Shown piece by piece: positions 3,899 to 57,253 of a stretch of DNA of 57,675 nucleotides; position 1 is the first letter of the stretch, and each line of letters starts with the position of its first letter. Source of the DNA: a virus (taxonomy: Duplodnaviria > Caudoviricetes); the IMG/VR virus record IMGVR_UViG_3300006174_000002, positions 1 to 57,675 of that record; one strand, 5' to 3'. The notes under the pieces were generated by a model. It searched no databases. It was not told the origin of the DNA and was given only the letters and a program-made list of their open reading frames with translations. The position numbers and the translations under genes were made by a program.

Positions 3899-4076
3899 GC
3901 CAGTGAAGCACCTGACGTATGAGACGATGACAACCGTGTCGCCCACATACGAAGAGATGCGGACGCTCCTACATCGCATCTACATTGCACGCAACATTGC
4001 GTTGCGGGAGGACACGATTCACGAGTGCTTGCGGCAGATCGACAAATGGTTCCCGGCCGAGTCAGGCATGAACTGA
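3852..4076 (+). CDS. hypothetical protein
   Basis: Short ORF coupled to the next gene by TGATG, start uncertain. Confidence 0.45.
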   Translation: MNRSMNSSLITSATPEPVKHLTYETMTTVSPTYEEMRTLLHRIYIARNIALREDTIHECLRQIDKWFPAESGMN

Positions 4077-4501
4077 TGAATCTTGATCCACTAGCGCGGT
4101 TGATTGACAACATGGGGGCGGCGCCGAAGTTCCACACTCGGGACTTCACGCCGCCCGCCGGGATGACGCATTGTGCTTGTGGCAAGAAGTTCATCCCGAT
4201 CGGCTCGGTCAGGATTCACAATACAGGTGTGCTGCAGGGCGTCACGGATTGCCTATGCAGCGATCATGAATGTACGAGCAAGGTGAAGCACTTTGCGTAC
4301 ATTGTGTGTATCAAGTGCAAGTCGGTGGTCTCGCGGATCCAGCCGTTGCGGTGCAAGTCTGGATTCCAAATACGTCCGGGGGAGTTCTATCATACGAACG
4401 CCTGTCCGGACTGTGTCAAAAACTTGGGCACCTCGGTCATATTGGAGAAATACTTCTTCGATAAGGAGCAAGGGGTGCCCGTGCCGGAATTGAAAAAATG
4501 A
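4076..4501 (+). CDS. Cys-rich putative Zn-binding protein
   Basis: CACG, CLC..C, CIKC and CPDC motifs. Confidence 0.65.
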   Translation: MNLDPLARLIDNMGAAPKFHTRDFTPPAGMTHCACGKKFIPIGSVRIHNTGVLQGVTDCLCSDHECTSKVKHFAYIVCIKCKSVVSRIQPLRCKSGFQIRPGEFYHTNACPDCVKNLGTSVILEKYFFDKEQGVPVPELKK

Positions 4502-5237: not shown

Positions 5238-5548
5238 AGCCCTGTGACTTGCTCAAGAGTTGGGGTTTCGTAAGTCAGGGCGAGGTGCTGTATGAAAATG
5301 CCAGTGTGCTTTATGTGCACTGGGAGCGCCGCATGGTAATCCAGGTATATCGGGACCTGTACGTCGCCGAGTTACGCGGCGCTTATGACGACTTCAAAGT
5401 GTCACGATTCAGTGCGGAAGAACTGCATGATTTAAAATTGGCGTATCTGGAAACAAGCATGCAGGACGCTGTGGATGTGCTGAAACGGGCTGAGGAGGAT
5501 TATAGGACGTTTCATTACAACGCGGTTAAGGACGCCGGCAATACGTAG
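5234..5548 (+). CDS. hypothetical protein
   Basis: ATGA-coupled ORF. Confidence 0.65.
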   Translation: MKPCDLLKSWGFVSQGEVLYENASVLYVHWERRMVIQVYRDLYVAELRGAYDDFKVSRFSAEELHDLKLAYLETSMQDAVDVLKRAEEDYRTFHYNAVKDAGNT

Positions 5549-5551
5549 GCT

Positions 5552-5571
5552 TTTTGTGCTATAAATACTTG
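5552..5571 (+). promoter_or_regulatory. putative phage-specific or extended -10 promoter TTTTGTGCTATAAATACTTG
   Basis: Intergenic, 18/20 identical to 23818..23837. Confidence 0.6.
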
Positions 5572-5590
5572 ATGGTATCATCATTTAGCT

Positions 5591-6589
5591 ATGGCAAAAA
5601 CTGACCTGCAAGACGTGGTTCACAGGTGGGACGTGCCGGTGGCGGAAGGTCTGGAAGTGATTCTGGATCAACCGTCGTCGGAACGTCCCCCTTTCTTCTA
5701 TCCAACCCGTGAGGATAACACGGGCCTTTGTTACGCGGCACTCAGCGTCCTACGGTGGCGGAACCGGTACAATCTGATTCACGGCCAGATTGTTCGATTC
5801 TCGCAGCCGCTGACTGGTTATCTCAATGCCGAGTTGGAACTCGCATTGTATGTGATGGTGGCCCGAATCCACAAGGTGGATCGGGAACGCGGCCTGTTCC
5901 GATTCGAGGCAGCTCTGTCCGGTACGCCCGAAGGGGCTAGCACGGCACTCCACGGCGAGTCAGCCGCGTTCTATTATCGACCGGACTCTTTGATGGGCTT
6001 TCTGGGTAACAATACCAGCATGCACAACCTGAGTCAGGAAGAGGTCCTACCACTGCTGTGCGGCGACGGGTACACCGAGAATGACCGATTCATTCGGCGC
6101 TCCGATGGTCGCATTCCTATTCAGCCCAGGTTTTACCAACTAGTGTCCAAACAGGACCCAGACGGCGAACCGAAGTTCGATGTGGAAACCGGCAAGTGGT
6201 TGTTCGTGAAGGAACTGCCGCAGGACATCAGCCCGGTGTGGCTACCGGCCGAGCATAAGGCGGCGACGTTCACGGAGAACAGACAGTGGTTGGAGAATCG
6301 GCACGGTGGTAAGTTTGTGCTGGGCCAGTCCATCTACGTCGGCACGGACACGATGCGTCCGCTGCTGGTTGGTGACGACTCGGCGGAACAAATCAAGCAG
6401 ATGCAGGAAAAGCTGCATAACTCACTATACGGGTATGCTTGGCAGCAGACCCAAGGAATACGGCCAGGACTGTTCGGGATTCCGAGACAGGCTGGTCTAC
6501 GCGAAAGCCGACAGGCTCATCTGAAACAGGTGCTTAACGCCTACGGGCGGCACGTGTGGCAGAAGCAACTGTTTGCTGCTCGCGGTTAA
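5591..6589 (+). CDS. hypothetical protein
   Basis: 332-aa ORF between a promoter motif and a terminator. Confidence 0.8.
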   Translation: MAKTDLQDVVHRWDVPVAEGLEVILDQPSSERPPFFYPTREDNTGLCYAALSVLRWRNRYNLIHGQIVRFSQPLTGYLNAELELALYVMVARIHKVDRERGLFRFEAALSGTPEGASTALHGESAAFYYRPDSLMGFLGNNTSMHNLSQEEVLPLLCGDGYTENDRFIRRSDGRIPIQPRFYQLVSKQDPDGEPKFDVETGKWLFVKELPQDISPVWLPAEHKAATFTENRQWLENRHGGKFVLGQSIYVGTDTMRPLLVGDDSAEQIKQMQEKLHNSLYGYAWQQTQGIRPGLFGIPRQAGLRESRQAHLKQVLNAYGRHVWQKQLFAARG

Positions 6590-17991: not shown

Positions 17992-18232
17992 AGCTGGCTG
18001 CGGAGGCTGCTACGATAATCATGAGCAGACGGAGCCGTCCACATATTGCGATGGTTTCATCAAGGCGGAAACGTTGAAGAACGCCAAGTTGGAATACGAT
18101 GCGCTTGACGCGGTGGCAAAGGCTGCTGCTGCGTTATACGATCCGCGACTTGCTCTGGGTGAGTACTATACGCACAAAACACTGCTTCAGGCTCGGCTGG
18201 CAGAGCTTGCTGCAATTCGAAGTAACGCATGA
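17963..18232 (+). CDS. hypothetical protein
   Basis: ORF whose TGA overlaps the tnpB ATG, start uncertain. Confidence 0.55.
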   Translation: MHPLQKLLTEAGCGGCYDNHEQTEPSTYCDGFIKAETLKNAKLEYDALDAVAKAAAALYDPRLALGEYYTHKTLLQARLAELAAIRSNA

Positions 18233-19350
18233 ACAATTCCAGCGCCGCAATCCCTCACGTTAACGGTGTGTTAGGTGCACCTGTAGAAACTGTGGCTTGC
18301 TGTTTTAAAACTTTGATTTCCGATGAGTTTGCTCATGGTCTTTCAAAGATGGAAATACAATGCCGATCCGCTGTTGAACGTATGCTGCTTGCCCGCAACG
18401 AAACCTCATCTAAATTCTACAAGGAAGTTCCCTGCGTCGTGGCCAAGAGCTTGGTCGCAAAATATCAACGTAACCCGAAATGCAAGTCAGTCAAACGTAT
18501 TGTGATTCCAGTTTGTGGTGACAAAGGGAAGCAGATCAAGCTGGTACCGGGTGGCGTGCGTATTCCAGCATTATTCAAGAAAGCAGTAATTCCAGTGTTC
18601 TGGCCTCGTCCGATAGCGGGTCATGTGCGCAGCGTTGAGATCTTTCAGCGTAGAGGTAGGTGGTTTGCTAACTTCTGTGTCAATGTCGCTACCGCCCCGG
18701 CCGTGAAAGCTACTGGCGTTATCGGCGTCGACCGAAACAGTGTCGGTAACGTAGCAGTCATGGCTGACCCGATGACGGGGCACGTTAGGCACATGGGTTT
18801 CAATCCGGCACGTACAAAGGCATGCTGGCGGAACCGAAAGAAGAATTTGCAGAAACAGGGTAAGCGTCGTCTCCTGTCGAAGCTGAATAAAAACCATGCA
18901 CGACGCTCAACATACCAAAATCACGTTGTCAGCAAGACAGTCGTGGAATACGCCAAAACACATTCTCGTGCTATTGCGTTGGAAAAGTTGTCCGGGGTTA
19001 ATGCCAAAGGCTCAAAGATTCGTTCCTACTCGGAACGTAATCAGTGGGCGTTTGCACAACTCGCCGGCTTCATCCAATACAAGGCACGGCTTGCAGGTGT
19101 AACCGTAGTGGAAGTCGATCCGGCTTATACAAGCCAGACCTGCTCTCGCTGCGGCCATATCCATAAACCGAACGGAAAGTTGTTCAGTTGCCCGGCTTGC
19201 AGACACGAAGACCATCGAGATTCAAACGCGGCGTTCAACATTGGACGTCGAGGACTTGATTGCATCGGTGGATTAGCGACTCACACAGCGCGGAGTCGTT
19301 CGGGTCTAATTGATAGCCCCGCATCTGGGACATTGGAGACTAAAATATGA
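18229..19350 (+). CDS. tnpB: TnpB RNA-guided nuclease (IS200/IS605 family)
   Basis: RuvC-I IGVDRN, RuvC-II ALEKL, YTSQTCSRCG...CPAC zinc ribbon, RuvC-III HRDSNAAFNI. Catalytic D/E/D are intact. Confidence 0.92.
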   Translation: MNNSSAAIPHVNGVLGAPVETVACCFKTLISDEFAHGLSKMEIQCRSAVERMLLARNETSSKFYKEVPCVVAKSLVAKYQRNPKCKSVKRIVIPVCGDKGKQIKLVPGGVRIPALFKKAVIPVFWPRPIAGHVRSVEIFQRRGRWFANFCVNVATAPAVKATGVIGVDRNSVGNVAVMADPMTGHVRHMGFNPARTKACWRNRKKNLQKQGKRRLLSKLNKNHARRSTYQNHVVSKTVVEYAKTHSRAIALEKLSGVNAKGSKIRSYSERNQWAFAQLAGFIQYKARLAGVTVVEVDPAYTSQTCSRCGHIHKPNGKLFSCPACRHEDHRDSNAAFNIGRRGLDCIGGLATHTARSRSGLIDSPASGTLETKI

Positions 19351-23837: not shown

Positions 23838-23928
23838 CTAACAGCTAGTATTCCATTGGTCCCGGTCGTCGTAATTGACGATCGGGACTTATGGTTTAAA
23901 CATCAACCGTTGAACCAACTGACTCCTT

Positions 23929-24684
23929 ATGCAAACACTCAATACCGATCAGACGTCACACACCTCAACCAATACATCCACCCACGGTGCCGACGACCTT
24001 GTGGTCTTGGCCCGCCAGTCCAGCGCAGCCTACATACAGTCGGCGCGTCACGGACTCAAAAGCAGTTCCATGCGCCAAGCGCAAGGCCACATGCAGGTCG
24101 CATACCTGCGCAAACTCGATGACGTTCCGGCGGCGGCCAAACCGCTGTATGACCTGGACCTGTCATTCCATACGCTGCTCGCGTCCGAACGCCAGCAGGA
24201 TCGGGTTGACGCCACCAAGGGCGTCATTGTCAGCGCGTTGTGTGTGCTGGGCAAGTTGATGAAACGTGACCCGTTGTCCATGCTTCCCGGCATTGACGAC
24301 ATGGTCAAGAAACATGACGAACAGCAGCGCACGATTGAGGCGCTGAATGCCAAGCTGTCTGACATGGAAGATCAGCTGAACGAGTCGCGCGCTCGTAACA
24401 ATGAGCTGCAGGCCCAGGTGGGTCAGCCCGCTGTCTTGGCTGATACCGTTGTGGTTGACGTGATCCTGGAGAAGCTCCGTCCGATCCACGAAGCCACTCG
24501 GCTTCTGGGCGATGACGTGGAGCTGTGCGATACGGGCAAGCTGGAAGAAAATCATCGTGACCAGATTATTGGCACGTTACGGTTTGTGAACGAGCACTTG
24601 TTGGTGCTGATTGATCCGAGCGAAGCTTCGGAAGCTGATGATCGAACTGTGCTGGCGCCAACTGCCAGTGCCGTTTCTGTCTGA
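23929..24684 (+). CDS. coiled-coil hypothetical protein
   Basis: 251-aa ORF with a heptad region. Confidence 0.7.
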   Translation: MQTLNTDQTSHTSTNTSTHGADDLVVLARQSSAAYIQSARHGLKSSSMRQAQGHMQVAYLRKLDDVPAAAKPLYDLDLSFHTLLASERQQDRVDATKGVIVSALCVLGKLMKRDPLSMLPGIDDMVKKHDEQQRTIEALNAKLSDMEDQLNESRARNNELQAQVGQPAVLADTVVVDVILEKLRPIHEATRLLGDDVELCDTGKLEENHRDQIIGTLRFVNEHLLVLIDPSEASEADDRTVLAPTASAVSV

Positions 24685-27190: not shown

Positions 27191-29314
27191 ATGACTGATG
27201 CAAACGAACCGCTCCCGCCACCGGGCGTTGAGCTGACTGACTGGAACGATTTCCCCAAGAAACGCCAGCAAATCTTCGACGGTGTCAAACAAGCCGTCCA
27301 AGAGTCCTTCCCCCAAAGCCAAGGCGGCGTCCGTCTCGAACTCCATAACCTCGGCTACGAGAACGCCAAACCGTTCTCGCTGGCAGAGCAGAAGAAGGCA
27401 CTGATGAGCGATCAGTACCTGCATCACAAGCTGCGCGGTACGCTGAGGCTGATTGACGAGAAGACCGGGGCTGTGCTGGACGAGCAGCATCAGACACTGT
27501 TAAAAACACCTTATTTAACCGAAAGGGGTACGTTTATTTACAACGGCAGCGAACTGTCCACCATATCTCAAGCGAGGCTACAACCTGGCATTTATTCCCG
27601 GCGCAAGGCAAATGGTGAGCTTGAAGCACATTGTTTTCATCATAAAGTAAAAGTTTTAACGTCTGAAGGCTGGTTGCCCATTGGGCAGATAGTCAATCAA
27701 AAGCTCAACGTGGATGTTTACAGTTACGACTTTGTTAACAAATGCTTTGTTCTTAAACCTGTAGTCGGCTGGTTTAAGAACACGATCAAATCTAGGCTGG
27801 GTCGCGCTGATGTCAATTCCGTGGCTCGTTCTCCTGTTAGCTCTGGTAGCTTCAATCCCAGCGCACTCTGGGTTACACCAGAGCATAAAATGTTGACTCT
27901 TGAAGGCAACAAAATTGAAATTCGTTCAGCCCAGTATCTGACTGTTGTAGAAGAAGAGCCTTCGGCAAATCAATGCCAAGTGCTGTACGGTTCGCTGTTG
28001 GGTGATGGCCATATAAGCACTCACAATCTATATGAAGAAGCTCACAGTCTTGATCAAGTGGACTATCTTCAATGGAAACATGACATGTTGGGCGGTTTTG
28101 TCTCGGCTCCGTTAGGGCATAAGCCTGCTAAAGGCAACCGACAGGAGGTTGTGACATTGAGGACTAAGGCTTGTATATTTATGCAAAAGTTACGGTTAAG
28201 CTTTTACCCTAATGGCGTCAAGATAGTACCTCGCGATCTGATTGAGAATTTGACCGCGTTGGGTTTGGCTTGTTGGTATGGCGATGATGGATACGCCATC
28301 AGATCAAAATACAAAGGAAATGTCTCATCGCATCTTTCAGTCCTTTTGTCTACCAACTGCTTCACTCAGGCAGACGTAAACTGGATTATATCTTGGTTTG
28401 AGCGTAAGTGGGGACTTAAGGCATCAAAGCTAAAAAACTCTAAGGACATCGACCGCGATATGGGTTGGGTCGTACGGCTAGGTGGCGCTGATGCTGAACG
28501 ATTTTTAGATATTGTTGCGCCGTACTTGCATCCCTCATTGAAATCGAAGTTGGCACAGCGTGTTCCTATGGGGCGTTGCATACATGGCGACAAAGAAATA
28601 ACTCGTGTGCGCTATGCATGTAATGCCTGTATGGTAACGCGATACGCGAATGGAAAAGCAAAAGCTCGGGAGCGGCAAAATACGCGTAGTCGATTGGGAC
28701 ATACGGCACTCGCGAAAATGATCAAAACCGGCATTATTGTTGAGGACAATAACCTTGGGGCTGCGTGGGATCGTCGAGTTGCTGCACTTGGTACTGCATT
28801 AACAAAGCTACCTGTCGCATCTGGGACTAAGTTGGTTTTGGCATCTATCCCTTGTGTTTACGATACTAATACCGGTACTAAACTATCTAAAACCAATACT
28901 GCATATGATATTGAAGTGGAAGGTACACACAATTACATTGCCAATGGTGTTTTAGTTAGTAATTGCAACGCTAAGCGGGGATCGGGTCAGTCTTTCCGTG
29001 TGAGTCTGGAGCCCGAGTCGGGCCTCTTCAAACTGAACATCGGTCAGTCCAGTCTTCGGCTGTATTCCCTACTGCATGACATCGGTGTGCCGGACGAGCA
29101 GCTGGAGAAAACGTGGGGTAAGGATTTGTTGGCGTCGAACAAGGCGGCGTACGACTCGCGGGTGTTTGACAAGGCGTACAATCGGTTTGTGCGCCGTGCT
29201 GACCCGGCGGCTAGTCGGGAGCAGAAGGCGGAGGCAATCAAGGCGGCGCTGGCTCAGACGTACGTGGATCACGATACGACTCGGAAGACGCTGCCCAATT
29301 TATTTAAAGAATGA
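27191..29314 (+). CDS. RNA polymerase beta-like subunit, N-terminal fragment, with intein
   Basis: PYLTERGTFIYNGSELSTISQARLQPGIY corresponds to the beta motif P.MT..GTFIING.ERV.VSQL.RSPGV. About 263 aa after splicing. Confidence 0.85.
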   Translation: MTDANEPLPPPGVELTDWNDFPKKRQQIFDGVKQAVQESFPQSQGGVRLELHNLGYENAKPFSLAEQKKALMSDQYLHHKLRGTLRLIDEKTGAVLDEQHQTLLKTPYLTERGTFIYNGSELSTISQARLQPGIYSRRKANGELEAHCFHHKVKVLTSEGWLPIGQIVNQKLNVDVYSYDFVNKCFVLKPVVGWFKNTIKSRLGRADVNSVARSPVSSGSFNPSALWVTPEHKMLTLEGNKIEIRSAQYLTVVEEEPSANQCQVLYGSLLGDGHISTHNLYEEAHSLDQVDYLQWKHDMLGGFVSAPLGHKPAKGNRQEVVTLRTKACIFMQKLRLSFYPNGVKIVPRDLIENLTALGLACWYGDDGYAIRSKYKGNVSSHLSVLLSTNCFTQADVNWIISWFERKWGLKASKLKNSKDIDRDMGWVVRLGGADAERFLDIVAPYLHPSLKSKLAQRVPMGRCIHGDKEITRVRYACNACMVTRYANGKAKARERQNTRSRLGHTALAKMIKTGIIVEDNNLGAAWDRRVAALGTALTKLPVASGTKLVLASIPCVYDTNTGTKLSKTNTAYDIEVEGTHNYIANGVLVSNCNAKRGSGQSFRVSLEPESGLFKLNIGQSSLRLYSLLHDIGVPDEQLEKTWGKDLLASNKAAYDSRVFDKAYNRFVRRADPAASREQKAEAIKAALAQTYVDHDTTRKTLPNLFKE
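27632..28963 (+). mobile_element. intein with LAGLIDADG endonuclease
   Basis: CFHHKVKVLT start, VTPEHK, YGSLLGDG, WYGDDG, YDIEVEGTHNYIANGVLVSN|C end. AT-rich. Confidence 0.92.
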
Positions 29315-29461: not shown

Positions 29462-29719
29462 ATGAGTAAATCCCGTTTCGGACGTTGCCAGGTTTGTGGT
29501 GACATGAACGATCTCAAGCATTTATCCCTTTACGTAATCGGCTCGGAAGGGCTGGACATCTGTCCATCGTGTGAAGTCGTGCTGGTAAATATGGTGCGCG
29601 GGCTAATTGAGGTCGGCAAGCGATGCCGCTTGGGCGGCTATAAGGCTGCCAAAGAAGTGGCTGAAGCGAAGCGTATCCAGGACCTTCGTGAAGCTGCAGC
29701 AATTGAACAACAACAATGA
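29462..29719 (+). CDS. small Zn-finger protein
   Basis: CQVC...CPSC. Confidence 0.6.
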   Translation: MSKSRFGRCQVCGDMNDLKHLSLYVIGSEGLDICPSCEVVLVNMVRGLIEVGKRCRLGGYKAAKEVAEAKRIQDLREAAAIEQQQ

Positions 29720-29973
29720 CTGATCTTACTGTTAAGAATCTCACGGACCTACAAATCTCGATTTCCAGACAGTCCAAGAAGTGGGCTGTATTCGACGGTA
29801 ACTTCGACTGTGTGAAGGACTTCGTTCCGTACACGGACGAACTCACGGCGCTGTCCGAAGCCAAAGCTTGGTGCGCCGAGCGGTCACCACAGGTCCCAGA
29901 AATCGTTTACCCACAGATTACCAAGATGACCGTGTCGTACAGTCAGCAACGCGGTCGGACGAAGCGCAAATGA
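29716..29973 (+). CDS. hypothetical protein
   Basis: Coupled ORF. Confidence 0.55.
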   Translation: MTDLTVKNLTDLQISISRQSKKWAVFDGNFDCVKDFVPYTDELTALSEAKAWCAERSPQVPEIVYPQITKMTVSYSQQRGRTKRK

Positions 29974-30257
29974 AACACCGGGATCATCGCTGCCGAATTT
30001 GCGGCGATTGGCTGAATGAGGATCGAGGGTGCGATCGTTGCGCGCAGGGTGTGCTGAAACAGTTCATCCCGCCGGAATGTTACGAGGAGTTGTTAGGGGT
30101 TGGACGCGGGGCAAAGATTATGGGTATCGGCGCAGACAAGCTTACCCGGGAAGACCTGTATGTGGCGCTTGCCATGGTGGGACGATCTATGGATGTGGCC
30201 ACTCTGCGCCGGGATAAGTGCTCTGAGTTTCAAAAGCAAGTGGCCGAGTTGCATTAA
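29970..30257 (+). CDS. small Zn-finger protein
   Basis: CRIC...CDRC. Confidence 0.55.
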   Translation: MKHRDHRCRICGDWLNEDRGCDRCAQGVLKQFIPPECYEELLGVGRGAKIMGIGADKLTREDLYVALAMVGRSMDVATLRRDKCSEFQKQVAELH

Positions 30258-30283
30258 AATATGAAGACAAATCGACTGATAGG

Positions 30284-30690
30284 TACGTGACCTGTGAATC
30301 ACGTAGACCCAGGCGTCCTGCAGGCGACCTGGGTCTTAACCGCAATTCATTGGTTTCCACCAGTGGCTTGCGTTTAAGAAAGGTCCCATGAAGCGAGAAT
30401 AGTACACATACACTAAACCGGGCTGGGCGGACCTGAAACACGGAGCTCAGTGCTGGAATGAACGAATCCTCACCGATCAAAGCGCGAGACAAAGCGCAAA
30501 GCCTAGATGCTGACAATCCCTTAACCGGAAATGAATAAAGCATTCAGGTGCACAAGCACAACGGACGAATGAGTAAATCGTCCGAATAAATATGCTCCGC
30601 CAGGCCAACGGCGCAGTTTGGTCTAGTTTCAAGGGCTTCTAAGAAACAAGCTCTACGCTCCGTGAGGCATTGCTTCACGGAGCTTCACTT
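30284..30690 (+). ncRNA. candidate large structured non-coding RNA, family unrecognised
   Basis: About 460-nt gap in coding, with a continuous series of stems containing G-U pairs and A-rich linkers, ending in an 11-bp hairpin and T-rich tail. Confidence 0.65.
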
Positions 30691-30724
30691 TCCCCGACGG
30701 TTAACCACAAAACACAAAGGAACT

Positions 30725-31165
30725 ATGAACAGAAAATTCGAACAAGCACTCATGTCTGCGATGGAAGAATTGGAGCACACAACTGACCCGGCACATTCTG
30801 ACTGGTCTCCAGTCAATGCGCGTGTGGTGGCTGTCCTGTCAGCGCTGCGTGGTTACCTGACCGAACACGGCACAACCAACGAGCAGGACGACCTGCTACG
30901 CTCCATCGGTCTGCACGAGGACACGGTGAATGAAGTTCAGTTCACGCTCCCCAAGATGCAGGGATTGTTACTTATGAACCTCTTGGACAATCCTGTGTTA
31001 TCGAAGTCGCTCCGCCATGGTTTCGGCATCAAGACGCCGATTGAGGCGTTGAACCATCCGGATGCACGTCTCGGCGGGCCGGTGCCGGCTCGTGCCCACA
31101 GCATGGATGATGGCACAGGCGAACTGGAAGAACCGGCGTGTGCCGAGTGTGGCTGTCGTCACTGA
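30725..31165 (+). CDS. hypothetical protein
   Basis: AAAGGA upstream of ATG 30725. Confidence 0.65.
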   Translation: MNRKFEQALMSAMEELEHTTDPAHSDWSPVNARVVAVLSALRGYLTEHGTTNEQDDLLRSIGLHEDTVNEVQFTLPKMQGLLLMNLLDNPVLSKSLRHGFGIKTPIEALNHPDARLGGPVPARAHSMDDGTGELEEPACAECGCRH

Positions 31166-31169
31166 CAGC

Positions 31170-31198
31170 TTGAATTCCCGGGGGAGCTCTGGCAGAAT
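31170..31198 (+). promoter_or_regulatory. leaderless sigma70-like promoter
   Basis: TTGAAT-17-CAGAAT-6 nt-ATG. Confidence 0.6.
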
Positions 31199-31204
31199 GC
31201 GGTC

Positions 31205-31717
31205 ATGTTCACGAAAGAAGAAATCGCGAAAGCGACTCGGATCGCCGAGTACATGACCAAAGCTGCCGAGCTTCCCCTCGGAAAACTCGAAGGAAACCCC
31301 AATCTCTGGTCCGACCCAATGCCCCGCTTTAACGCCCCCAACCCCGCCTTCGCCGGCGCTAAAGCCCCGGAAGGTTTCATGGGTAGCTTGGGTACCATGG
31401 CTAAGGGTATGTACCGTGGCGCTGGCGGATTGGCCGCCGCGACGTTCACCGGGCAAAAGGGCTACCAGGGTGCCGCGGAAGGTTTGGCGTACAACACGGC
31501 GCGTCTCGGCCGCGACATGTTCACGCAAGGCCCTCGCCAAGCGTTTCGGAATGCCGGTAACAATTTCTCTCACGATCTGGCAGCGCCGTACCAACGCGCC
31601 TGGCAGAATTACAAAGATGACGGTGGCGCGCAGCAGGCCGTGGCTCCCGCAGCTTGGGCCGGTCGCCAGTGGAAAGACCTCACCACCGGACCTACCTTGT
31701 GGGGTACCGGCCGATGA
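31205..31717 (+). CDS. Gly/Ala-rich putative virion protein
   Basis: N-terminal segment ending MTKAA, then low complexity. Confidence 0.65.
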   Translation: MFTKEEIAKATRIAEYMTKAAELPLGKLEGNPNLWSDPMPRFNAPNPAFAGAKAPEGFMGSLGTMAKGMYRGAGGLAAATFTGQKGYQGAAEGLAYNTARLGRDMFTQGPRQAFRNAGNNFSHDLAAPYQRAWQNYKDDGGAQQAVAPAAWAGRQWKDLTTGPTLWGTGR

Positions 31718-32424
31718 TCACCGCCGCGGACATTCTCAACCAAGCCCGTAAGACCCTCAAGAAGGCGTCTGCCGCCCCCGCAGCGGTGCCGGCTCCCGCT
31801 CCACTCCCTTCCGGCCCTCCGCCTGGCCCCGACGACGTAGCGCTCAGCCCTGACGCACTGGTGTCCATCACAGAGAAGCTGCTTGCCATTAACCGTGGCC
31901 ATGCCGAGCCGGACGAGCGTGATAGCCTTGAACACCGTCGGGTTTACACCCCGGACAAGCTCTTTGCGGAACGCGTACGACTGGACGCCAATAAGCTACG
32001 CCGGGTCATGATGCGTCGAGTCGCCAAGTCACGTAATTTGAAGCCGGTCGGGATTGCCCATTTCGATCCGTACATGGAAGGGTTGCTGATTGGCAATCCG
32101 TTGTCCTCGCCGTTGGAGGAAATCAATCCGTTGCACCTGGTGGAGCAGAATCGTCGGATTACGCAGATGGGTCCGGGCGGGATTCAGTCGGAGGATTCGC
32201 TCACGGATGAGAGCTCGAACGTCCATCCGAGTATTTTTGGATTTCTCTCCCCGATCGAAAGTCCAGAATCGAGCAGAGCCGGCGTAGACACCCGTCTCGC
32301 GTGGGGTGCAAAGATTGGCAGTGACGGTAAGATTTATCAGAAGATGCGGCATCGCAAGTCTGGAACCATCCAGTATGTGAATCCGAATCAAGTGGCAAAC
32401 GCAGTCGTTGGTATCCCCGAATAA
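31714..32424 (+). CDS. RNA polymerase beta-like subunit, middle (fork/rifampicin-pocket) fragment
   Basis: NPLHLVEQNRRITQMGPGG...VHPSIFGFLSPIESPE corresponds to beta NPL.E..HKRR.SALGPGG...DVH..HYGR.CPIETPE. Confidence 0.88.
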   Translation: MITAADILNQARKTLKKASAAPAAVPAPAPLPSGPPPGPDDVALSPDALVSITEKLLAINRGHAEPDERDSLEHRRVYTPDKLFAERVRLDANKLRRVMMRRVAKSRNLKPVGIAHFDPYMEGLLIGNPLSSPLEEINPLHLVEQNRRITQMGPGGIQSEDSLTDESSNVHPSIFGFLSPIESPESSRAGVDTRLAWGAKIGSDGKIYQKMRHRKSGTIQYVNPNQVANAVVGIPE

Positions 32425-32495: not shown

Positions 32496-32599
32496 CGCAT
32501 TTGGTTCAAATAATTTACCCGTAGTCGGGTTCTCCCTTTCCTCGGCCGTGTGGTCGAAGGAACTCCCAAAGTAGTTAACCACAAACCAAAGGTCTCAGC

Positions 32600-33046
32600 A
32601 TGAAAAAGTTCCTCACATCAGTTGGCGATTTCTTCGCCTACGTCCCGGTGTCCGTCTATAACTGGGTAGTCATCGAACCGAGCGGATCGCAAGTCAAAAC
32701 CCACCTCGGCCGCCAGGAGGTTCAAACCCAAGAAACGCCCGGCGGTCTCGTCATCGCGCTCAAGACCAAAGGCCTTGAGGTCGAAACGCTGGACGCCGCG
32801 AAATGCGTCACGGTTCCCCTGTCCCAGGACGAAGACGTCCGCGGCTTCTTCGTGGCCGGCGTCCAGGCTGGTGTCAACCTCATGTCCATCGAAGCCAACG
32901 CGCTGACCCAGCAGCAGTTCCGTGCCGATCAGCGTGCCCTGCGCACCATCCGCAAAGCCAAGGAGGCGGCGGAGCGCGCCGAGCAGAAAGCGCAAGCTGA
33001 AGCCGCCGGCAATGTGCCGGTTGGCGCGGTTCCGCAAGCAGCCTAA
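32600..33046 (+). CDS. hypothetical protein, probably highly expressed
   Basis: Strong C-ending codon bias. Confidence 0.75.
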   Translation: MKKFLTSVGDFFAYVPVSVYNWVVIEPSGSQVKTHLGRQEVQTQETPGGLVIALKTKGLEVETLDAAKCVTVPLSQDEDVRGFFVAGVQAGVNLMSIEANALTQQQFRADQRALRTIRKAKEAAERAEQKAQAEAAGNVPVGAVPQAA

Positions 33047-33093: not shown

Positions 33094-33402
33094 ATGCAAC
33101 AAAATCAATCAGTCGACGGTATGCGTCCCCTCGGTAATCGGATTCTGGTGGAAGACGTGGATGACCGCGTGGCCGTCTCGGGCGGCATCGTCATTCCCGA
33201 AGCGTCGCGCGAGACTTCCAACACTTCAATTGTGCTGGCGTTGGGTAAGTGCAATCGCAGCGAGAGCGGTGTCGAAACGCCGTTCCGGGTGAAGGTTGGT
33301 GATAAGGTGATGCTCTGTCGGTTCGGTGGCACACCAGTGGTTCGGAATGGCAAGCAATATCGGTTGGTCACGGAAGAAAACATTGTGGCAATTCTCAATT
33401 AA
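33094..33402 (+). CDS. groES: co-chaperonin GroES (Cpn10)
   Basis: RPLGNRILVE, SGGIVIP, VKVGDKV...FGGT, ENIVAIL. Confidence 0.9.
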   Translation: MQQNQSVDGMRPLGNRILVEDVDDRVAVSGGIVIPEASRETSNTSIVLALGKCNRSESGVETPFRVKVGDKVMLCRFGGTPVVRNGKQYRLVTEENIVAILN

Positions 33403-35852: not shown

Positions 35853-36059
35853 ATGAAGACTGCCGACGCGCTGATCGAGGAAACGGAGATTGAACACAAG
35901 GGCAAATCCGTCGACGGAGTGACCCTAACCTGCGGTGACTGCGACGCCGTCGTCGAGACCACCGGTTACGACACCCCAGAGAACCGAGCCGTGCTACAAA
36001 CACGGCTTTGTCATGCCTGCCCAGAGAAGCGGTGTACACGGTTCAAAATCTGTGAATGA
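35853..36059 (+). CDS. small Cys-containing protein
   Basis: CGDC...C..CP. Confidence 0.55.
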   Translation: MKTADALIEETEIEHKGKSVDGVTLTCGDCDAVVETTGYDTPENRAVLQTRLCHACPEKRCTRFKICE

Positions 36060-36493
36060 TGTGGTTCTTCTATGCATTCCTGGCCTCTGTCCTCTGGGGC
36101 ATCGCCTACGTGTTCGGTGGTCGGCTGCTCCAAAGCATCCACGTTCAAACCCTGCTCCTCCTTGAGCTCGGCATCGGCACCCTCACCTTCCTCATCTGGT
36201 CCCTTCACAAACACACCCTCGGAACGGACATCACTACCGTACTGAAGGACGGTACGCTCAGTAAACAGCTCGTCCTCAGCATCGTCTCCTTCAACGTGGC
36301 TAACCTGTTGATAATCCTGTCTGTACGGGAGAAAAACGCAGTGTTGGCCAGCGTCCTCGAAGTGTCATACCCGTTGTTCGTCGTGCTGTTCTCGTGGCTA
36401 TTCTTTCGGGAGAGCCATATGAACTTACGCACGGCCGCCGGCGGGCTGATGATCTTGGCTGGTGTGTTCATCGTTTATTGGAACAATCGTTAG
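36056..36493 (+). CDS. EamA/DMT-family small transporter
   Basis: Five TM helices, LEVSYPLFVVLFSWLFFRE and GGLMILAGV. Confidence 0.85.
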   Translation: MMWFFYAFLASVLWGIAYVFGGRLLQSIHVQTLLLLELGIGTLTFLIWSLHKHTLGTDITTVLKDGTLSKQLVLSIVSFNVANLLIILSVREKNAVLASVLEVSYPLFVVLFSWLFFRESHMNLRTAAGGLMILAGVFIVYWNNR

Positions 36494-37759: not shown

Positions 37760-37784
37760 AGCCGCCCCACTCGGGCGGCTTTTT
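37760..37784 (+). terminator. intrinsic terminator
   Basis: AGCCGCCC-CACTC-GGGCGGC-TTTTT. Confidence 0.8.
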
Positions 37785-37789
37785 CATTT

Positions 37790-38221
37790 ATGGCAATAAT
37801 CAAAGAACCACAATCACTGGCCTGTCAGCCCGACTCGGAAGAAGGTTTGGTATTCTTCACGCACTTCGACTGCTGGAACACCACCAGTAACCCGGACGAA
37901 AGCAATAACGACAACTGGTGGGCTTGGGACGACGGCGCGGCGGTCAATCAGGTGTGGTTGCTGATGCGCGACGCGTGGGCACTGACCGACGATGAGGAGT
38001 ACATGATGTTTGCCCCGCAGTATCTGGCAATGGGGCAAGTGCCGTGGTTTGCGGAGTTGGAAAAGATGTTCATTGCATCGGGATATCATGTGTACAACTC
38101 GGATACTTTTTTCGAGGTGTACGACCCGAAAGTGGCGGATGTGGATGATGAGGCGCAAGAGACGCATGAAGTTGATTGCGATTGTCATAATTGCAGAGTG
38201 ATGGAAAAGGCCGACAAATGA
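37790..38221 (+). CDS. acidic hypothetical protein
   Basis: ATG directly after the terminator. Confidence 0.65.
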   Translation: MAIIKEPQSLACQPDSEEGLVFFTHFDCWNTTSNPDESNNDNWWAWDDGAAVNQVWLLMRDAWALTDDEEYMMFAPQYLAMGQVPWFAELEKMFIASGYHVYNSDTFFEVYDPKVADVDDEAQETHEVDCDCHNCRVMEKADK

Positions 38222-50510: not shown

Positions 50511-51122
50511 ATGGATCTGCAAGATTGGCTGTTTTACTGTACGCAAAGTCCTATCGCAGCCAAGCTGTGCGGGTGGGGGTTGCTCTGCTATGGGGCTTGG
50601 TCATACTTCGTGCGGCCTGGCGTCAAACGGCTAATCAGCATGGTGCAGTCCAGCCAACACATGAGCGAAGTGCTGCCGGTGTTGGTCAACATGGCAGACC
50701 AGTTCAAACCAAATGGTGGCAACAGCTTACGAGACGTCGTCGACCGTATCAGCCAGAATCAGATCATCAACACGCTCCGGCACCGTACCATCTGTGCGCA
50801 TCTGGATCTCGCCACGTTTGAGGCTGATGCCAAAGGCAAGTACACTTTCGTGTCTCGGCCTTGGTGTAACTTCACAAATATGGTGCCGAGTCAGGCTTTA
50901 GGTGACGGTTGGATTGCCAGCGTGCATCCTGACGATCGCGACAAGGTCGTGGCCGAATGGCAGCACGCCATTGAGGACAACCGTGAGTTCTATGCCGTGT
51001 ACCGCGTCCTCACATTCGGTCAGGGCGGTATTGTAAGACTGGCAAGCCGGGCATTCCCAGCTGTGGGTTCGACGGCAGACAAATTGGTCGGTTTTGTCGG
51101 TGTAACCACGATTGCTGTATGA
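50511..51122 (+). CDS. membrane protein with C-terminal PAS domain
   Basis: TM helix, PNGGNSLRDVVDRI linker, DAKGKYTFVS..W...LGDGWIASVHPDDR PAS signature. Confidence 0.8.
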   Translation: MDLQDWLFYCTQSPIAAKLCGWGLLCYGAWSYFVRPGVKRLISMVQSSQHMSEVLPVLVNMADQFKPNGGNSLRDVVDRISQNQIINTLRHRTICAHLDLATFEADAKGKYTFVSRPWCNFTNMVPSQALGDGWIASVHPDDRDKVVAEWQHAIEDNREFYAVYRVLTFGQGGIVRLASRAFPAVGSTADKLVGFVGVTTIAV

Positions 51123-51532: not shown

Positions 51533-51556
51533 ACCCACCCTTGTGGCGGGTTTTTT
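51533..51556 (+). terminator. intrinsic terminator
   Basis: ACCCACC-CTTGT-GGCGGG-TTTTTT. Confidence 0.65.
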
Positions 51557-51561
51557 CATTT

Positions 51562-51753
51562 ATGGCTGAACCCATTATCTTAACGAACTGTGGTAATTAC
51601 GAAGAAGACCCGCACATCTGCGATGACGTTGGTGAAACTAAAGGTCAGTGTGCTAACTGTGGGGCCAAATGGTACGAACACAACCTTGGATTGCTGTTCG
51701 GCTCGGACCTGGAATATGCCCGTCAAATACAGGCATTACGCGGAACAAAATGA
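51562..51753 (+). CDS. small Cys-containing protein
   Basis: CANCGAKWYEH. Confidence 0.55.
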   Translation: MAEPIILTNCGNYEEDPHICDDVGETKGQCANCGAKWYEHNLGLLFGSDLEYARQIQALRGTK

Positions 51754-53861: not shown

Positions 53862-56800
53862 ATGCCCGCTCCATTACGGCCCGCAATCAAAGACAATCAG
53901 CTGCAGGAAGTGCCCGACTCGGAAGTCGAGTACGAACACCTCTCCCCCAACCAGCACCTCGGCACCCACGCCAACCTGGTTCCACTCCAGTCCGCTGTCT
54001 CCTCTGGCCGTGTGTTCTACGGTGCCCGGTTCGCCAATCAGGCACTGCCCCTGAAGACCCCTGAAGCCCCGCTGGTGCAATTGTTGAGCGATACCGACCC
54101 GGAAGGCCGGTCGTTCGATGAAATCCTTGGCAACGAGGCCGGGAACGTCAGGGCGACCCACGAGGGTAGAGTTCATTCCGTGACGCCCGACGAGATCGTG
54201 GTCAAGACCAAGGACGGCGAAATGGTCAAGCATGACACGTACGAAAATTTTCCATTCAATCGTAAAACGACCTTAACACACATCCCGCTCGTCAAAGCCG
54301 GCGACCCCGTGACGCCCGGACAGCTCCTGGCCCATTCCAACTACACCGACAAGAACGGCACCCTGGCCATGGGCACCAACGCCCGAGTCGGTATCGTCCC
54401 GTACAAAGGCCACTCCATGGACGACGCCATCGTCATCTCCACCAGCATGGCCAAACGCTTCACCGCCAACAATCTCTACGGTCACGACCTCTCATACAAA
54501 CGGGGGGTCAAGGGCGGCAAGGCGCATTACACTGGGCTGTTCACCCACAAATTCGTGAATGAGCAGCTGGACAAGCTGGACGACGACGGGGTGGTGAAGG
54601 TGGGACAGGTATTGAAGCAGGGCGATCCGTTAATCTTGGCGACTCGGCCCCGGGTGGTTAGCTCGACGACGGCGCAATTGGGTCAGCTCTCCAAGCACAT
54701 GAAGAACGCACGGAATGATGCCTCTGTGCTCTGGGATCACGAAACACCTGGTACGGTGCTGGACGTGCATCGGACGCGCTCTGGGGTCAAGGTGAACGTC
54801 AGCAGCGATGCCCCCGCGGAAGTGGGCGACAAGATCGTAGGTCGATCCGGGGCCAAGGCCACTGTGTCGACCATCGTCCCGGACGAGCACATGCCGCGTA
54901 CCGTGGATGGTAAGCCGTTGGAGATTTTACTCAATCCTCAGAGTTTGGTGTCCCGTATGAATCCGTCGCTGGCCTATGAGATTATGCTCGGCAAGGTGGC
55001 TCGGAAGACAGGCAAGACCTATAAGCTACCCTCGGTGCTGCCGAAGGGTCAGGCTTGGTATGACTTTGTGAAGGGCGAGTTGGACAAGGCGGGCGTCTCG
55101 GACAAAGAGGAAGTGTTCGATCCGTTGCTGAATCGGAAGCTGGAAAACCCAATCACGGTTGGTGATATGCATTGGCTCAAGCTCCATCACTCCTCGGAGA
55201 GCAAAGTGAGCTCGCGCGGTACTGGGAGTTACAACGCGGATCAGCAACCAAGCCATGGTGGTGGTGACATGGCTCAATCGAAGCGCATGTCTGGGTTGGA
55301 CAGCAATGCCCTGATGTCCTCCGGCGCGTACAACCTGCTCAGAGAGGGTGCGACGCTAAGGGGTACTAAGTGTTTCGACGTGCAGACGGAAGTACTGACG
55401 CGACGCGGCTGGTTGTTTTGGAAGGATGTTACGGGGTCAGATGAACTATACACGCAGGATGGTTCAGGTCGTGGTTTTTTCGAAGTGCCACAACTCCTGC
55501 ATAGGTACCAGTACACAGGTGACATGTATGGTTTTGAGGGTCGCTTCTTAGATTGGCTAGTCACGCCTGACCATAAACTTTGGATGCAGCACATCAAAGC
55601 TACCAAGGGTCCGAAGATGCGGTTCAAAACAGCAAAAGAACTACATGGTAGAACTTTCTATATCCCGCAATTCGGCTCAGTGTATCCCGGCACATTGTCT
55701 GATGATTATCGTGTGCCGATTGTCAGTCAACCTGGTTGGCGTTCAAAGGGGTTTTCAATACCAATTCACGATTATTGCGAGTTGCTTGGCTGGTGGCTAA
55801 GCGAGGGTTGTTCTATGATAGATACGGATGCAGGAAAACGTGGTTATACTCAAATATCACAATCAGAATCTGCTAATCCGAAAAAACTTGAAACTATTAT
55901 ATCGTTGGTTGAACGAATTGGTCTAAAATATAATCATTTGCGATGTGGTGGTTACTCCAGGGGTATTCGTATTCGCAATAAACCACTGGCAGCACATCTG
56001 CGTCAATATGGGACTGGCGCTGCAAATAAGCGTATTCTACCCATTATTTTTGAAGCCCCTCTTGCTGCGCGTTTGAAGTTAATTGATGCTTATATTTTAG
56101 GTGATGGTCACACGCATGTGCATAACAACACGACTAGCCGAAGGGCCAGTAGCGTATCGCGCGGGTTATTGGACGATATGCAACGGTTGGCTGTTTTATC
56201 AGGTAATGGCGGCATCATTTCGCTGATCGACAGATCGCGGGTCACAACCTCTGCATTGAGAGACGGTAGACCGCTTAACTGCCTACCTATATGGTACATC
56301 GGTTTTGCAGATAATCGGCGTAACGCCACGGTGGATGGGTGGCATCCTTCACCGAATATGAGGCATGCATATATCGAACACTATGACGGTACGGTCTACT
56401 GCGCGACCATGTCTACCGGATTGCTATACGTACGACGCAACGGCAAACCTATGTGGTCTGGAAATTGTGACAATTATTGGCGAGAGCTGCGCCAGGGGCA
56501 TGAACCCAAGGAACCCGGAACGCCTTTCATCTGGGAGAAGTTCAAAGCGTTGCTGCAGGGTGCTGGGTATCACGCTCGCCGGCTGGGCAACGGCAAGGAG
56601 CGGTTGCAGTTCCTTACGGAAAAGGACCTTGAGAAGCATAAGCCGATTCGGGTGCGTACGGGTGATCTGGTGGACATGAACGATCTGAGCCCGGTTAAGG
56701 GCGGTTTGTTCGACCCAGCGCTTACGGGTGCTGGGGCATGGGGTTTCGTACAATTACCTCATTCCATTCCAAATCCAGCGGCCCAGGACGTTGTCTGCAA

Positions 56801-56876
56801 GCTTCTCGGTTTGACAGAACGGCAATATCGCGCGGTGCTCGCTGGCGAAGAAGACATGCCGGATAACTCGAAGTAA
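53862..56876 (+). CDS. RNA polymerase beta-like C-terminal fragment fused to a beta'-like N-terminus, with intein
   Basis: NQALPL, GTLAMGTN..YKGHSMDDAIVIS, GDKIVGRSGAK, LLNPQSLVSRMN, LKLHH..SKVSSRGTGSY..QQP, then PVKGGLFDP..G..WG...LP. Confidence 0.9.
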   Translation: MPAPLRPAIKDNQLQEVPDSEVEYEHLSPNQHLGTHANLVPLQSAVSSGRVFYGARFANQALPLKTPEAPLVQLLSDTDPEGRSFDEILGNEAGNVRATHEGRVHSVTPDEIVVKTKDGEMVKHDTYENFPFNRKTTLTHIPLVKAGDPVTPGQLLAHSNYTDKNGTLAMGTNARVGIVPYKGHSMDDAIVISTSMAKRFTANNLYGHDLSYKRGVKGGKAHYTGLFTHKFVNEQLDKLDDDGVVKVGQVLKQGDPLILATRPRVVSSTTAQLGQLSKHMKNARNDASVLWDHETPGTVLDVHRTRSGVKVNVSSDAPAEVGDKIVGRSGAKATVSTIVPDEHMPRTVDGKPLEILLNPQSLVSRMNPSLAYEIMLGKVARKTGKTYKLPSVLPKGQAWYDFVKGELDKAGVSDKEEVFDPLLNRKLENPITVGDMHWLKLHHSSESKVSSRGTGSYNADQQPSHGGGDMAQSKRMSGLDSNALMSSGAYNLLREGATLRGTKCFDVQTEVLTRRGWLFWKDVTGSDELYTQDGSGRGFFEVPQLLHRYQYTGDMYGFEGRFLDWLVTPDHKLWMQHIKATKGPKMRFKTAKELHGRTFYIPQFGSVYPGTLSDDYRVPIVSQPGWRSKGFSIPIHDYCELLGWWLSEGCSMIDTDAGKRGYTQISQSESANPKKLETIISLVERIGLKYNHLRCGGYSRGIRIRNKPLAAHLRQYGTGAANKRILPIIFEAPLAARLKLIDAYILGDGHTHVHNNTTSRRASSVSRGLLDDMQRLAVLSGNGGIISLIDRSRVTTSALRDGRPLNCLPIWYIGFADNRRNATVDGWHPSPNMRHAYIEHYDGTVYCATMSTGLLYVRRNGKPMWSGNCDNYWRELRQGHEPKEPGTPFIWEKFKALLQGAGYHARRLGNGKERLQFLTEKDLEKHKPIRVRTGDLVDMNDLSPVKGGLFDPALTGAGAWGFVQLPHSIPNPAAQDVVCKLLGLTERQYRAVLAGEEDMPDNSK
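55371..56465 (+). mobile_element. intein with LAGLIDADG endonuclease
   Basis: CFDVQTEVLTRRGW start, VTPDHK, LLGWWLSEG, YILGDG, YVRRNGKPMWSGN|C end. Confidence 0.92.
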
Positions 56877-56890
56877 ACAACCAACAATTT

Positions 56891-56918
56891 AAGCCCGCCC
56901 TCACCGGCGGGCTTTTTT
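56891..56918 (+). terminator. intrinsic terminator
   Basis: AAGCCCGCC-CTCACC-GGCGGGC-TTTTTT. Confidence 0.85.
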
Positions 56919-56923
56919 CATTT

Positions 56924-57253
56924 ATGGTAAAAGAAACCGAATTCGAAGACTTCGTCGTGATGAACGACAATTTCAAGGTGGTGTGGGAACACATTGGAGA
57001 AGGCTGGAGCGGCGAGTTCGACCCGGCTGTCAGTGATGATGAACCGTTGCTCCGTTTCTCCTGCTTGCGCGGAACGAATGACGGCTGGGAGGAAGTGGAG
57101 AATGGCAGCTACTGTACGCGGTGTCCTATCAGTACGCCGAGACACGTGTTGCTACAGTTTGCTAAGCAGATACTGGAAGCGTTGAAACAACCGTCGCCGA
57201 AGCGCCGGTTGCAGGAATTGTCGTGGCTATGCCCGGCTGACTATGTTAACTGA
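56924..57253 (+). CDS. hypothetical phage protein
   Basis: IGEGWSGEFDP..DEPLLRF..SYCT motif. Confidence 0.7.
   Translation: MVKETEFEDFVVMNDNFKVVWEHIGEGWSGEFDPAVSDDEPLLRFSCLRGTNDGWEEVENGSYCTRCPISTPRHVLLQFAKQILEALKQPSPKRRLQELSWLCPADYVN

Follow-up and report, generated by a model that had tools for sequence, protein, structure and literature searches.

The 57,675-bp window analyzed here is the whole IMG/VR virus record IMGVR_UViG_3300006174_000002 of an uncultured freshwater giant phage; its completeness is estimated at 30%, and the full genome would be roughly 190 kb. Almost all long open reading frames (ORFs) lie on the + strand, and ATGA-type start/stop overlaps are frequent. The window carries pieces of a multisubunit RNA polymerase beta-like protein, whose closest named homologs are gp206 of Salmonella phage Arash (1525 amino acids [aa], single gene) and the product of a split gene of Vibrio phage D181. 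Mapping the Arash and D181 proteins onto the window with tblastn placed the beta-like subunit in at least three genes, N1, N2, and C (53862-56876), with 21 kb between N2 and C; within the single ORF of N1, a LAGLIDADG intein separates residue blocks 1-142 and 145-262. An island of about 2.4 to 2.5 kb is placed exactly between beta residues 262 and 264. It comprises, after N1, four coupled ORFs starting at 29311, 29462, 29716, and 29970, a gap of 467 nucleotides (nt), ORF 30725, ORF 31205, and then N2, again coupled, from 31714. This gap encodes a new, so far orphan, structured RNA. Its initial annotation as lying between two RNA polymerase genes is right only in a loose sense, since 943 nt with four small ORFs intervene on the N1 side and 989 nt with two ORFs on the N2 side.

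N1 and N2 are separate ORFs also in all four relatives examined (G001, G002, G003, and G004; N2 identity of 46 to 60%), where the spacer is filled by ORFs unrelated to one another or by a long extension at the C terminus of N1: G001 has a 1401-aa N1, G003 has 816 aa plus two ORFs, G002 has five ORFs, and G004 has one. Since the two pieces are separate but have different fillings between them in four of four relatives, the split of the beta gene is ancestral and the spacer hypervariable. None of the six island ORFs of the window had a tblastn match at the N1/N2 locus of these relatives. Searches of viral and metagenome contigs gave no relative of ORF 30725-31165, whose sole match among 5.8 billion protein clusters (near lengths) was itself. 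Judged by these comparisons, the gap RNA is part of an island of ORFans specific to this lineage and flanked by two pieces of a beta gene whose split is ancestral.

No other ORF-free stretch of the window is as large as the gap (30258-30724), in agreement with what had been noted before. It is bounded by the TAA of the upstream ORF (30255-30257) and by the next start equipped with a Shine-Dalgarno sequence, the ATG at 30725. On a greedy map of + strand ORFs of at least 45 aa, it measures 404 nt by ORF extents and is followed in size by the first 399 nt of the window, at its edge, and by a stretch of 245 nt. Stops occur in all three + frames of the gap, and the longest + strand ORF wholly inside it has 34 aa. 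A search with tblastx against 103 loci found no protein remnant in the gap, the sole match being the self-locus (L001). A 118-aa minus-strand ORF (30187-30543) overlaps the gap; minus-strand ORFs of at least 100 aa exist across the window. A 26-aa + strand ORF (MNESSPIK...; 30458-30538) falls within the RNA core, has only a GGA abutting its ATG, and is probably not translated. Neither of these two ORFs had a Pfam match at an E value of ≤1, and PHROGs gave merely E values of 0.1 to 0.3 for the 118-aa ORF. The gap stretch is non-coding.

The strongest evidence for an RNA is its presence in RNA libraries, where a transcript had been expected. A 1301-nt query (29900-31200, both flanks included) was found whole or in part in nine public runs of nine studies, four of which are metatranscriptomes, and the core sequence is near-identical in the runs of the nine studies. 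When the contigs of the four metatranscriptome runs (X2, X5, X6, and X7; four studies) were placed on 29600-31400, core contigs were present in every run, and all five of them nest in 30367-30666 with at least 99% identity and no loose ends (Table 1). In X2, the deepest run, the core contig has about 7- to 14-fold the depth of the four flanking contigs, one of just 34 nt at the edge of the stretch, which have depths of 3 to 5.8. As the query held both flanks, the restriction to the core was not imposed by the choice of query; by a rough estimate, if contigs fell at random on the 1301-nt query, the chance of the three smaller runs all nesting in the 300 nt of X2 would be ~1e-4. Contigs start at 30367 and 30369 in two studies, within the 3' flank of hairpin H3, and at 30407 and 30408 in the two others; such shared starts are a weak hint of 5' ends. 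One further X2 contig starts at 30700. X2 has no contig at 29797-30366 or at 30667-30699, and X5, X6, and X7 have no flanking contigs, absences that we do not count as evidence. Spliced, circular, or back-joined forms did not appear in the contigs of the four runs, an assembly product that drops rare forms.

The predicted RNA unit is ~300 to 325 nt long, running from about 30367 to the terminator-like hairpin at 30657-30693, and its own two ends would close the rod from which the multi-branched core emerges (Table 1). In this fold the helices closing the junction domain have pair probabilities of 0.998 for CCUG/CAGG and 0.98 for CGGAGC/GCUCCG. A terminator scan called the final hairpin on the + strand only. 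The initial annotation had drawn a longer unit of ~400 nt (30284..30690); its terminator end is retained here, while the 5' hairpins at 30284-30372 fall outside the contigs. The stems that it listed are all present at their coordinates, by reading of the sequence and by an inverted-repeat listing (I8, 30284-30290/30299-30305; I2, 30305-30320/30321-30336; I1, 30334-30354/30359-30379; I14, 30381-30386/30429-30434; I16, 30441-30446/30594-30599; I12, 30562-30568/30578-30584; I5, 30657-30669/30671-30683). Three of the local hairpins, AGGTCC/GGACCT, AGGCCAA/TTGGTCT, and GGGCTT/AAGCTC, have their + strand sequences in place but reach a probability of only 0 to 0.075 in the ensemble of 30367-30693, in which the long-range rod forms instead; AGGTCC/GGACCT does form when 30367-30600 alone is folded. 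The terminator strands are near-copies of both strands of the junction-closing helix: in the repeat listing, the 9-mer CACGGAGCT is present twice with 9/9 identity (D7; CACGGAGCU twice), UAUGCUCCGCCAGGC and UACGCUCCGUGAGGC are identical at 12 of 15 positions (D3), and 30439-30454 is complementary to 30649-30664 at 13 of 16 (I3).

Table 1. Features of the N1-N2 island, predicted parts of the RNA, core contigs of the RNA runs, and beta homology blocks (window positions; probabilities are pair probabilities).
Feature	Position	Strand	Remarks
RNA polymerase beta piece N1	27191-29314	+	Residues 1-262 of Arash/D181 homologs; LAGLIDADG intein inside
Beta homolog residues 1-142	27212-27634		tblastn
Beta homolog residues 145-262	28979-29305		tblastn
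Upstream ORFan, 95 aa	29970-30257	+	CxxC...CxxC; fourth and last translationally coupled small ORF after N1
Hairpin H1	30284-30305	+	7-bp perfect stem; just past the stop of the upstream ORF; outside the RNA-run contigs; in centroid
Hairpin H2	30305-30336	+	AGACCCAGG CGUC / GGCG ACCUGGGUCU; no U tract behind
Hairpin H3	30341-30372	+	Inner 30347-30366 scans as weak terminator-like site
RNA body (predicted)	30367-30656	+	Imperfect rod of 30367-30435 with 30601-30650, closing a multi-branched core; probabilities 0.5-1.0
Five-way junction domain (predicted)	30441-30599	+	Closed by CGGAGC/GCUCCG
Junction arm A	30447-30476		Probability 0.73-0.79
Junction arm B	30482-30497		Probability 0.995
Junction arm C	30501-30549		Probability 0.5-0.84
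Junction arm D, weak	30548-30559		Probability 0.35
Junction arm E	30562-30584		Probability 0.96
Intrinsic-terminator-like hairpin	30657-30693 (stem 30657-30683)	+	12 bp, 8 G-C, 3-nt loop, tail UUCACUUUCC; probability 0.997; terminator scan
X2 core contig	30367-30666		300 nt; word depth 41.7
X5 core contigs	30369-30519; 30500-30650
X6 core contig	30408-30633
X7 core contig	30407-30602
Short 5' untranslated stretch of next gene	30700-30724	+	GTTAACCACAAA motif, AAAGGA Shine-Dalgarno sequence, then ATG 30725
Downstream ORFan, 146 aa	30725-31165	+	Followed by ORF 31205-31717, then N2 from 31714
RNA polymerase beta piece N2	31714-32424	+	Residues 264-469 of homologs
Beta homolog residues 264-469	31840-32421		tblastn
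Beta homolog residues 476-1104	53871-56849		tblastn

Folding energies are consistent with a structured RNA read from the + strand, as had been proposed from the sequence. The + strand of 30258-30726 folds at -156.9 kcal/mol, against -123.5 +/- 5.8 kcal/mol for 100 dinucleotide shuffles (z of -5.75; none of the 100 as good), so that the fold beats its shuffles as anticipated; the minus strand reaches a z of -3.03. The segment 30367-30690 alone folds at -107.7 kcal/mol (z of -4.72, again with 0 of 100 shuffles as good), and its minimum-free-energy and centroid structures are almost identical. Adenines make up 71 of the 128 unpaired bases (55%), giving A-rich loops, and 9 of the 98 pairs are G-U, which become A-C mismatches on the opposite strand; together with the terminator called on the + strand only, these features point to that strand. 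In a control of 129 windows of 324 nt across the record (mean z of -0.64, standard deviation of 1.46), the core ranked fourth lowest, and in a retest with 80 shuffles it scored -4.17 beside -4.18, -4.34, -4.35, -3.95, and -1.51 for the five other lowest windows. Four of these, at 451-774, 4051-4374, 5401-5724, and 23851-24174, are mostly coding and, with z values of -3.95 to -4.35, are on par with the core; structured elements may be present there as well, or the genome may fold unusually well overall.

The pattern TTAACCRCAA, derived after two copies had been seen, occurs three times on the + strand (30336-30345, 30701-30710, and 32575-32584; 0.16 expected, and 0 of 100 shuffles reach three). 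Hairpin H3, the RNA, and the terminator all lie between the first two copies, which are 365 bp apart. The pattern could serve as a common signal for 5' ends or promoters, or it could be a target site duplicated when a cassette was inserted.

Searches for homologs gave none. Alignment of the beta C protein recovered 223 viral contigs, the best 80 of which were kept as related records. A single-sequence covariance model of the inner domain 30429-30606 (R1), which scored 232 bits on its own record as a positive control, was run against these best 80 of 223 IMG/VR relatives and phages Arash and D181; one of the 82 gave a match at an E value of ≤1 (11.2 bits, a 26-nt hairpin), and none was credible. 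Applied without filters to all of G003 (167 kb) and G002 (52 kb), the two closest genomes, R1 reached at best 12.9 bits. No homolog of 29800-31200 was found by blastn among 50,697 phage records; for the RNA itself, the best blastn E value against the closest complete relative was 0.109, and among 20 related records just 14- to 19-nt matches appeared in four, with E values of at least 0.04. Five loop-anchored patterns yielded only chance matches, 0, 0, and 22 in viral contigs, 8 in genome contigs, and 48 in metagenome contigs, none above 12.1 bits with R1. At present the RNA thus appears, from these sequence searches, to be an orphan confined to this lineage.

The RNA also fits no catalogued family, one of the possibilities named by the initial annotation: Rfam 15 gave no match at gathering score in the whole window. 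At an E value of ≤10, 30100-30900 had five chance-level matches only, and 30350-30700 had one, to a C/D-box snoRNA model on the minus strand at 11 bits. No Rfam match to a known riboswitch or cis-regulatory class overlaps 30350-30700; the lone cis-regulatory match nearby, Guanidine-II at 30861-30895, scores 14.4 bits against a gathering score of 32. The absence of tRNA, tmRNA, and RNase P signatures was likewise borne out. ARAGORN found 0 genes in 57.7 kb. The helix 30377-30387/30633-30640, with a bulged U, resembled P4 of RNase P, but RF00010 was negative in the window at an E value of ≤10, with a control that was positive in 11 of 14 genomes. The Rfam scans also ruled out 6S RNA, and an antisense regulator of window genes was rejected, there being no perfect complement of 12 nt or more on the rest of the + strand of the window. 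TnpB omega-RNAs lie at and just past the 3' end of the tnpB gene; the sole TnpB-like ORF of the window is 11 kb off, and the core model matches nothing else in the window. That ORF (18229-19350) encodes a 373-aa TnpB-type protein with a Cas12f1-like TNB domain (Pfam, 8.8e-25). GOLLD and ROOL RNAs are roughly 500 to 800 nt long and frequently have a tRNA or prophage neighborhood. The kinship with them that the initial annotation had suggested finds no support: the RNA has no match to their Rfam models at an E value of ≤10, is about half their size or less at ~300 to 325 nt, has no tRNA genes nearby, and belongs to no homolog family. What it shares with them is the character of a large intricate RNA of phages or prophages and an abundance in environmental data (PMC5737381; bioRxiv 10.1101/2024.12.08.627333).

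Our preferred explanation, to which we assign a probability of about 0.42, is that the gap gives rise to a discrete, stable, + strand non-coding RNA that is the prematurely terminated leader of the downstream transcription unit. The gap transcript would be the leader of a unit running on into ORF 30725, ORF 31205, and beta piece N2, its 5' end arising by a promoter of its own or by processing of the upstream operon transcript. The terminator strands duplicate the closing helix, so that the 5' strand of this helix (30429-30446) has two possible, near-identical 3' partners, as in attenuators. Pairing with the first (30594-30606) would close the fold and leave the terminator free to form, while the second (30654-30668) is itself the 5' strand of the terminator, whose formation would be blocked by such a pairing. 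In the default state the closed fold with the terminator would prevail, most transcripts would stop, and a compact, end-paired product would accumulate; the polymerase could read through in the presence of a factor that opens the closing helix or keeps it from forming. The leader reading is supported by the same-strand gene with a Shine-Dalgarno sequence that begins 41 nt past the terminator hairpin. A scan of 29800-31300 revealed no sigma-70-like promoter, and the phage may use its own polymerase.

Several observations weigh against this explanation. The forced anti-terminator fold reaches -90.6 kcal/mol, against -107.7 kcal/mol for the closed fold with the terminator; being 17 kcal/mol weaker, it would need an additional factor for a switch to work. 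A 9-mer repeated within 500 nt has an estimated ~0.5 occurrences expected by chance. The GTTAACCACAAA 12-mer also stands 25 nt before the ATG at 32600, a gene without such an RNA, so that the downstream gene may have expression signals of its own, and the further X2 contig starts at 30700. The downstream genes are ORFans, and no ligand logic can therefore be proposed. With no homolog in 82 related records and three public collections, there is no covariation support for any helix. Fold energy alone does not single out the core in this genome. Contigs show neither strand, true ends, nor level, and an RNA library can hold DNA. Structure and function are in this sense predictions, made for an RNA without relatives in a phage without a cultured host.

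A close rival, which we regard as possible if somewhat unlikely, is a stable RNA that acts in trans and is expressed independently, from a start of its own to a terminator of its own. It would bind protein as a decoy, sponge, or scaffold, with transcription or defense proteins of the host or the phage as conceivable partners, and would exert no control over the downstream genes. The same contigs and fold would be expected of it, and paired ends with a terminator hairpin are typical of long-lived RNAs. Its position in a lineage-specific accessory island, among ORFs without relatives, is in keeping with such a role, as is the motif that the downstream gene has in common with another gene start. 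The lack of a perfect antisense match of at least 12 nt on the rest of the + strand of the window disfavors a base-pairing small RNA (sRNA) and favors protein binding, although only 30% of the genome is in hand and targets could lie beyond it. Against this rival count the lack of a known partner, of a promoter recognized in the scan, and of conservation.

Less probable, in our view, is a by-product with no function of its own: a spacer between operons, or the structured 3' terminus of the transcript from the upstream operon, either of which would resist nucleases by its tight fold. Hairpins H1 to H3 lack U tracts, so upstream transcripts may reach the terminator at 30683; the contig starts at 30367/30369 in two runs and at 30407/30408 in two others suggest trimming, and the lack of conservation in 82 related records is also what a by-product would show. 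However, a terminator or stabilizer could do with a simpler structure than the 290-nt multi-branched fold, with its A-rich loops and closed rod, and the gap is the sole one of such size in a genome packed with overlapping start and stop codons. Less likely still, and offered as speculation, is that the RNA is the founding member of a new regulatory RNA class tied to the split polymerase of the phage, either as a factor-sensing attenuator that meters beta N2 or as a stable decoy or scaffold that binds the host or phage polymerase; it would then be plentiful enough to show up in environmental RNA of several freshwater sites.

The remaining alternatives are highly improbable. The first is a minus-strand transcript or a small protein gene, the 118-aa or the 26-aa ORF; the contigs are strandless and both ORFs exist, but the searches described above gave neither a convincing relative, the RNA contigs extend 59 to 123 nt past the start codon of the 118-aa ORF, the minus-strand fold is less exceptional (z of -3.03), and the 26-aa ORF has merely a GGA at its ATG. 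On a map restricted to the + strand, moreover, ORFs of at least 45 aa leave no other internal gap above 245 nt. A self-splicing group I or II intron or its remnant, slightly less probable again, is brought to mind by the LAGLIDADG intein of the beta gene, by the exact placement of the RNA-holding island between residues 262 and 264, and by the endonuclease-bearing beta insert of the relative D181. Against it, no intron family matches even at an E value of ≤10, the ORFs on either side are intact, stand by themselves, and show translational coupling to their neighbors, the downstream ORF starts at an ATG with a Shine-Dalgarno sequence of its own and has no longer fused homolog among near-length proteins, and in four of four relatives the beta pieces are separate ORFs with unrelated genes between. 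The least credible is a DNA-level element (replication origin, packaging site, or operator palindromes), to which the several short perfect palindromes would be suited, but there is no GC-skew turn at 30 kb and no repeat array, and the G-U-dependent helices and the presence in RNA libraries point to RNA.

Among known systems, terminator-based leaders and riboswitch expression platforms resemble the proposed leader in layout: the spacer is structured and on the same strand, an intrinsic terminator precedes a segment of RNA polymerase beta, and one strand has two possible partners. The rplL-rpoB spacer of E. coli also carries an attenuator. In contrast to such leaders, the RNA described here has no known aptamer family, an alternative fold that is 17 kcal/mol weaker, two ORFans before the beta piece, and no conservation. 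For giant phage 201phi2-1, 11 sRNAs of <250 nt have been described, of which three are intergenic and eight, a precedent for the leader reading, arise by premature termination in 5' untranslated regions (PMC11512511). Like the sRNAs of 201phi2-1 and phiKZ in that account, ours appears as a phage-encoded, non-coding short unit that is enriched in RNA data and has a terminator just upstream of a gene, and these phages, too, encode a multisubunit RNA polymerase (PMC11512511). Those sRNAs were selected at <250 nt and have simple folds, whereas ours measures ~300 to 325 nt, is built from a closing rod around a five-way junction, and bears no sequence relation to them; one of theirs is conserved across genera, while ours has no detectable homolog (PMC11512511). 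Measured by the properties that define giant-phage sRNAs, presence in RNA libraries and a terminator were seen, the length lies above the 250-nt filter, and a start is not readable from contigs. The group I introns and inteins of phage RNA polymerase genes share the neighborhood, a hotspot for selfish insertions; such introns are mentioned in the same report (PMC11512511), and inteins were seen here. Unlike them, the RNA leaves all reading frames uninterrupted and has no match among intron models, and a joined form is absent from the RNA contigs.

Other insertions were observed in this phage and its relatives. The N1 intein matches Pfam LAGLIDADG at 2.6e-27, plus a weak Intein_splicing match. 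Beta piece C carries an insert of ~369 aa (residues 502-870) that is missing from relative G001 and has a LAGLIDADG_3 match below threshold, and a LAGLIDADG domain within a DEAD/Helicase_C protein (1118-3898) is the third intein-like insertion of the window. In Vibrio phage D181 (L003, 6745-7693), an insert with an annotated homing endonuclease gene, likely an intron, interrupts the beta gene past residue ~514, at a site that differs from that of the island in the window. Elsewhere in the window, a G+C hairpin followed by TTTTT(T)CATTTATGG occurs in three copies (37765-37796, 51537-51568, and 56899-56930), with the 12-mer TTTCATTTATGG exact in all; the ATG of the motif at 37790 and at 56924 is in frame with the following ORF and apparently its start, and the whole arrangement resembles a terminator joined to a start signal that lacks a Shine-Dalgarno sequence. 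Further genes encode a GroES-type co-chaperonin (33094-33402; Cpn10, 2.4e-20), an EamA-like membrane protein fragment (36056-36493), and a PAS-domain protein (50511-51122).

Phage non-coding RNAs are barely charted, and those above ~250 nt with complex junctions are rare. If the RNA regulates or binds the fragmented RNA polymerase of its phage, it would offer a new handle on transcription control in such phages; a role as decoy of host proteins would make it a further example of RNA-based counter-defense.

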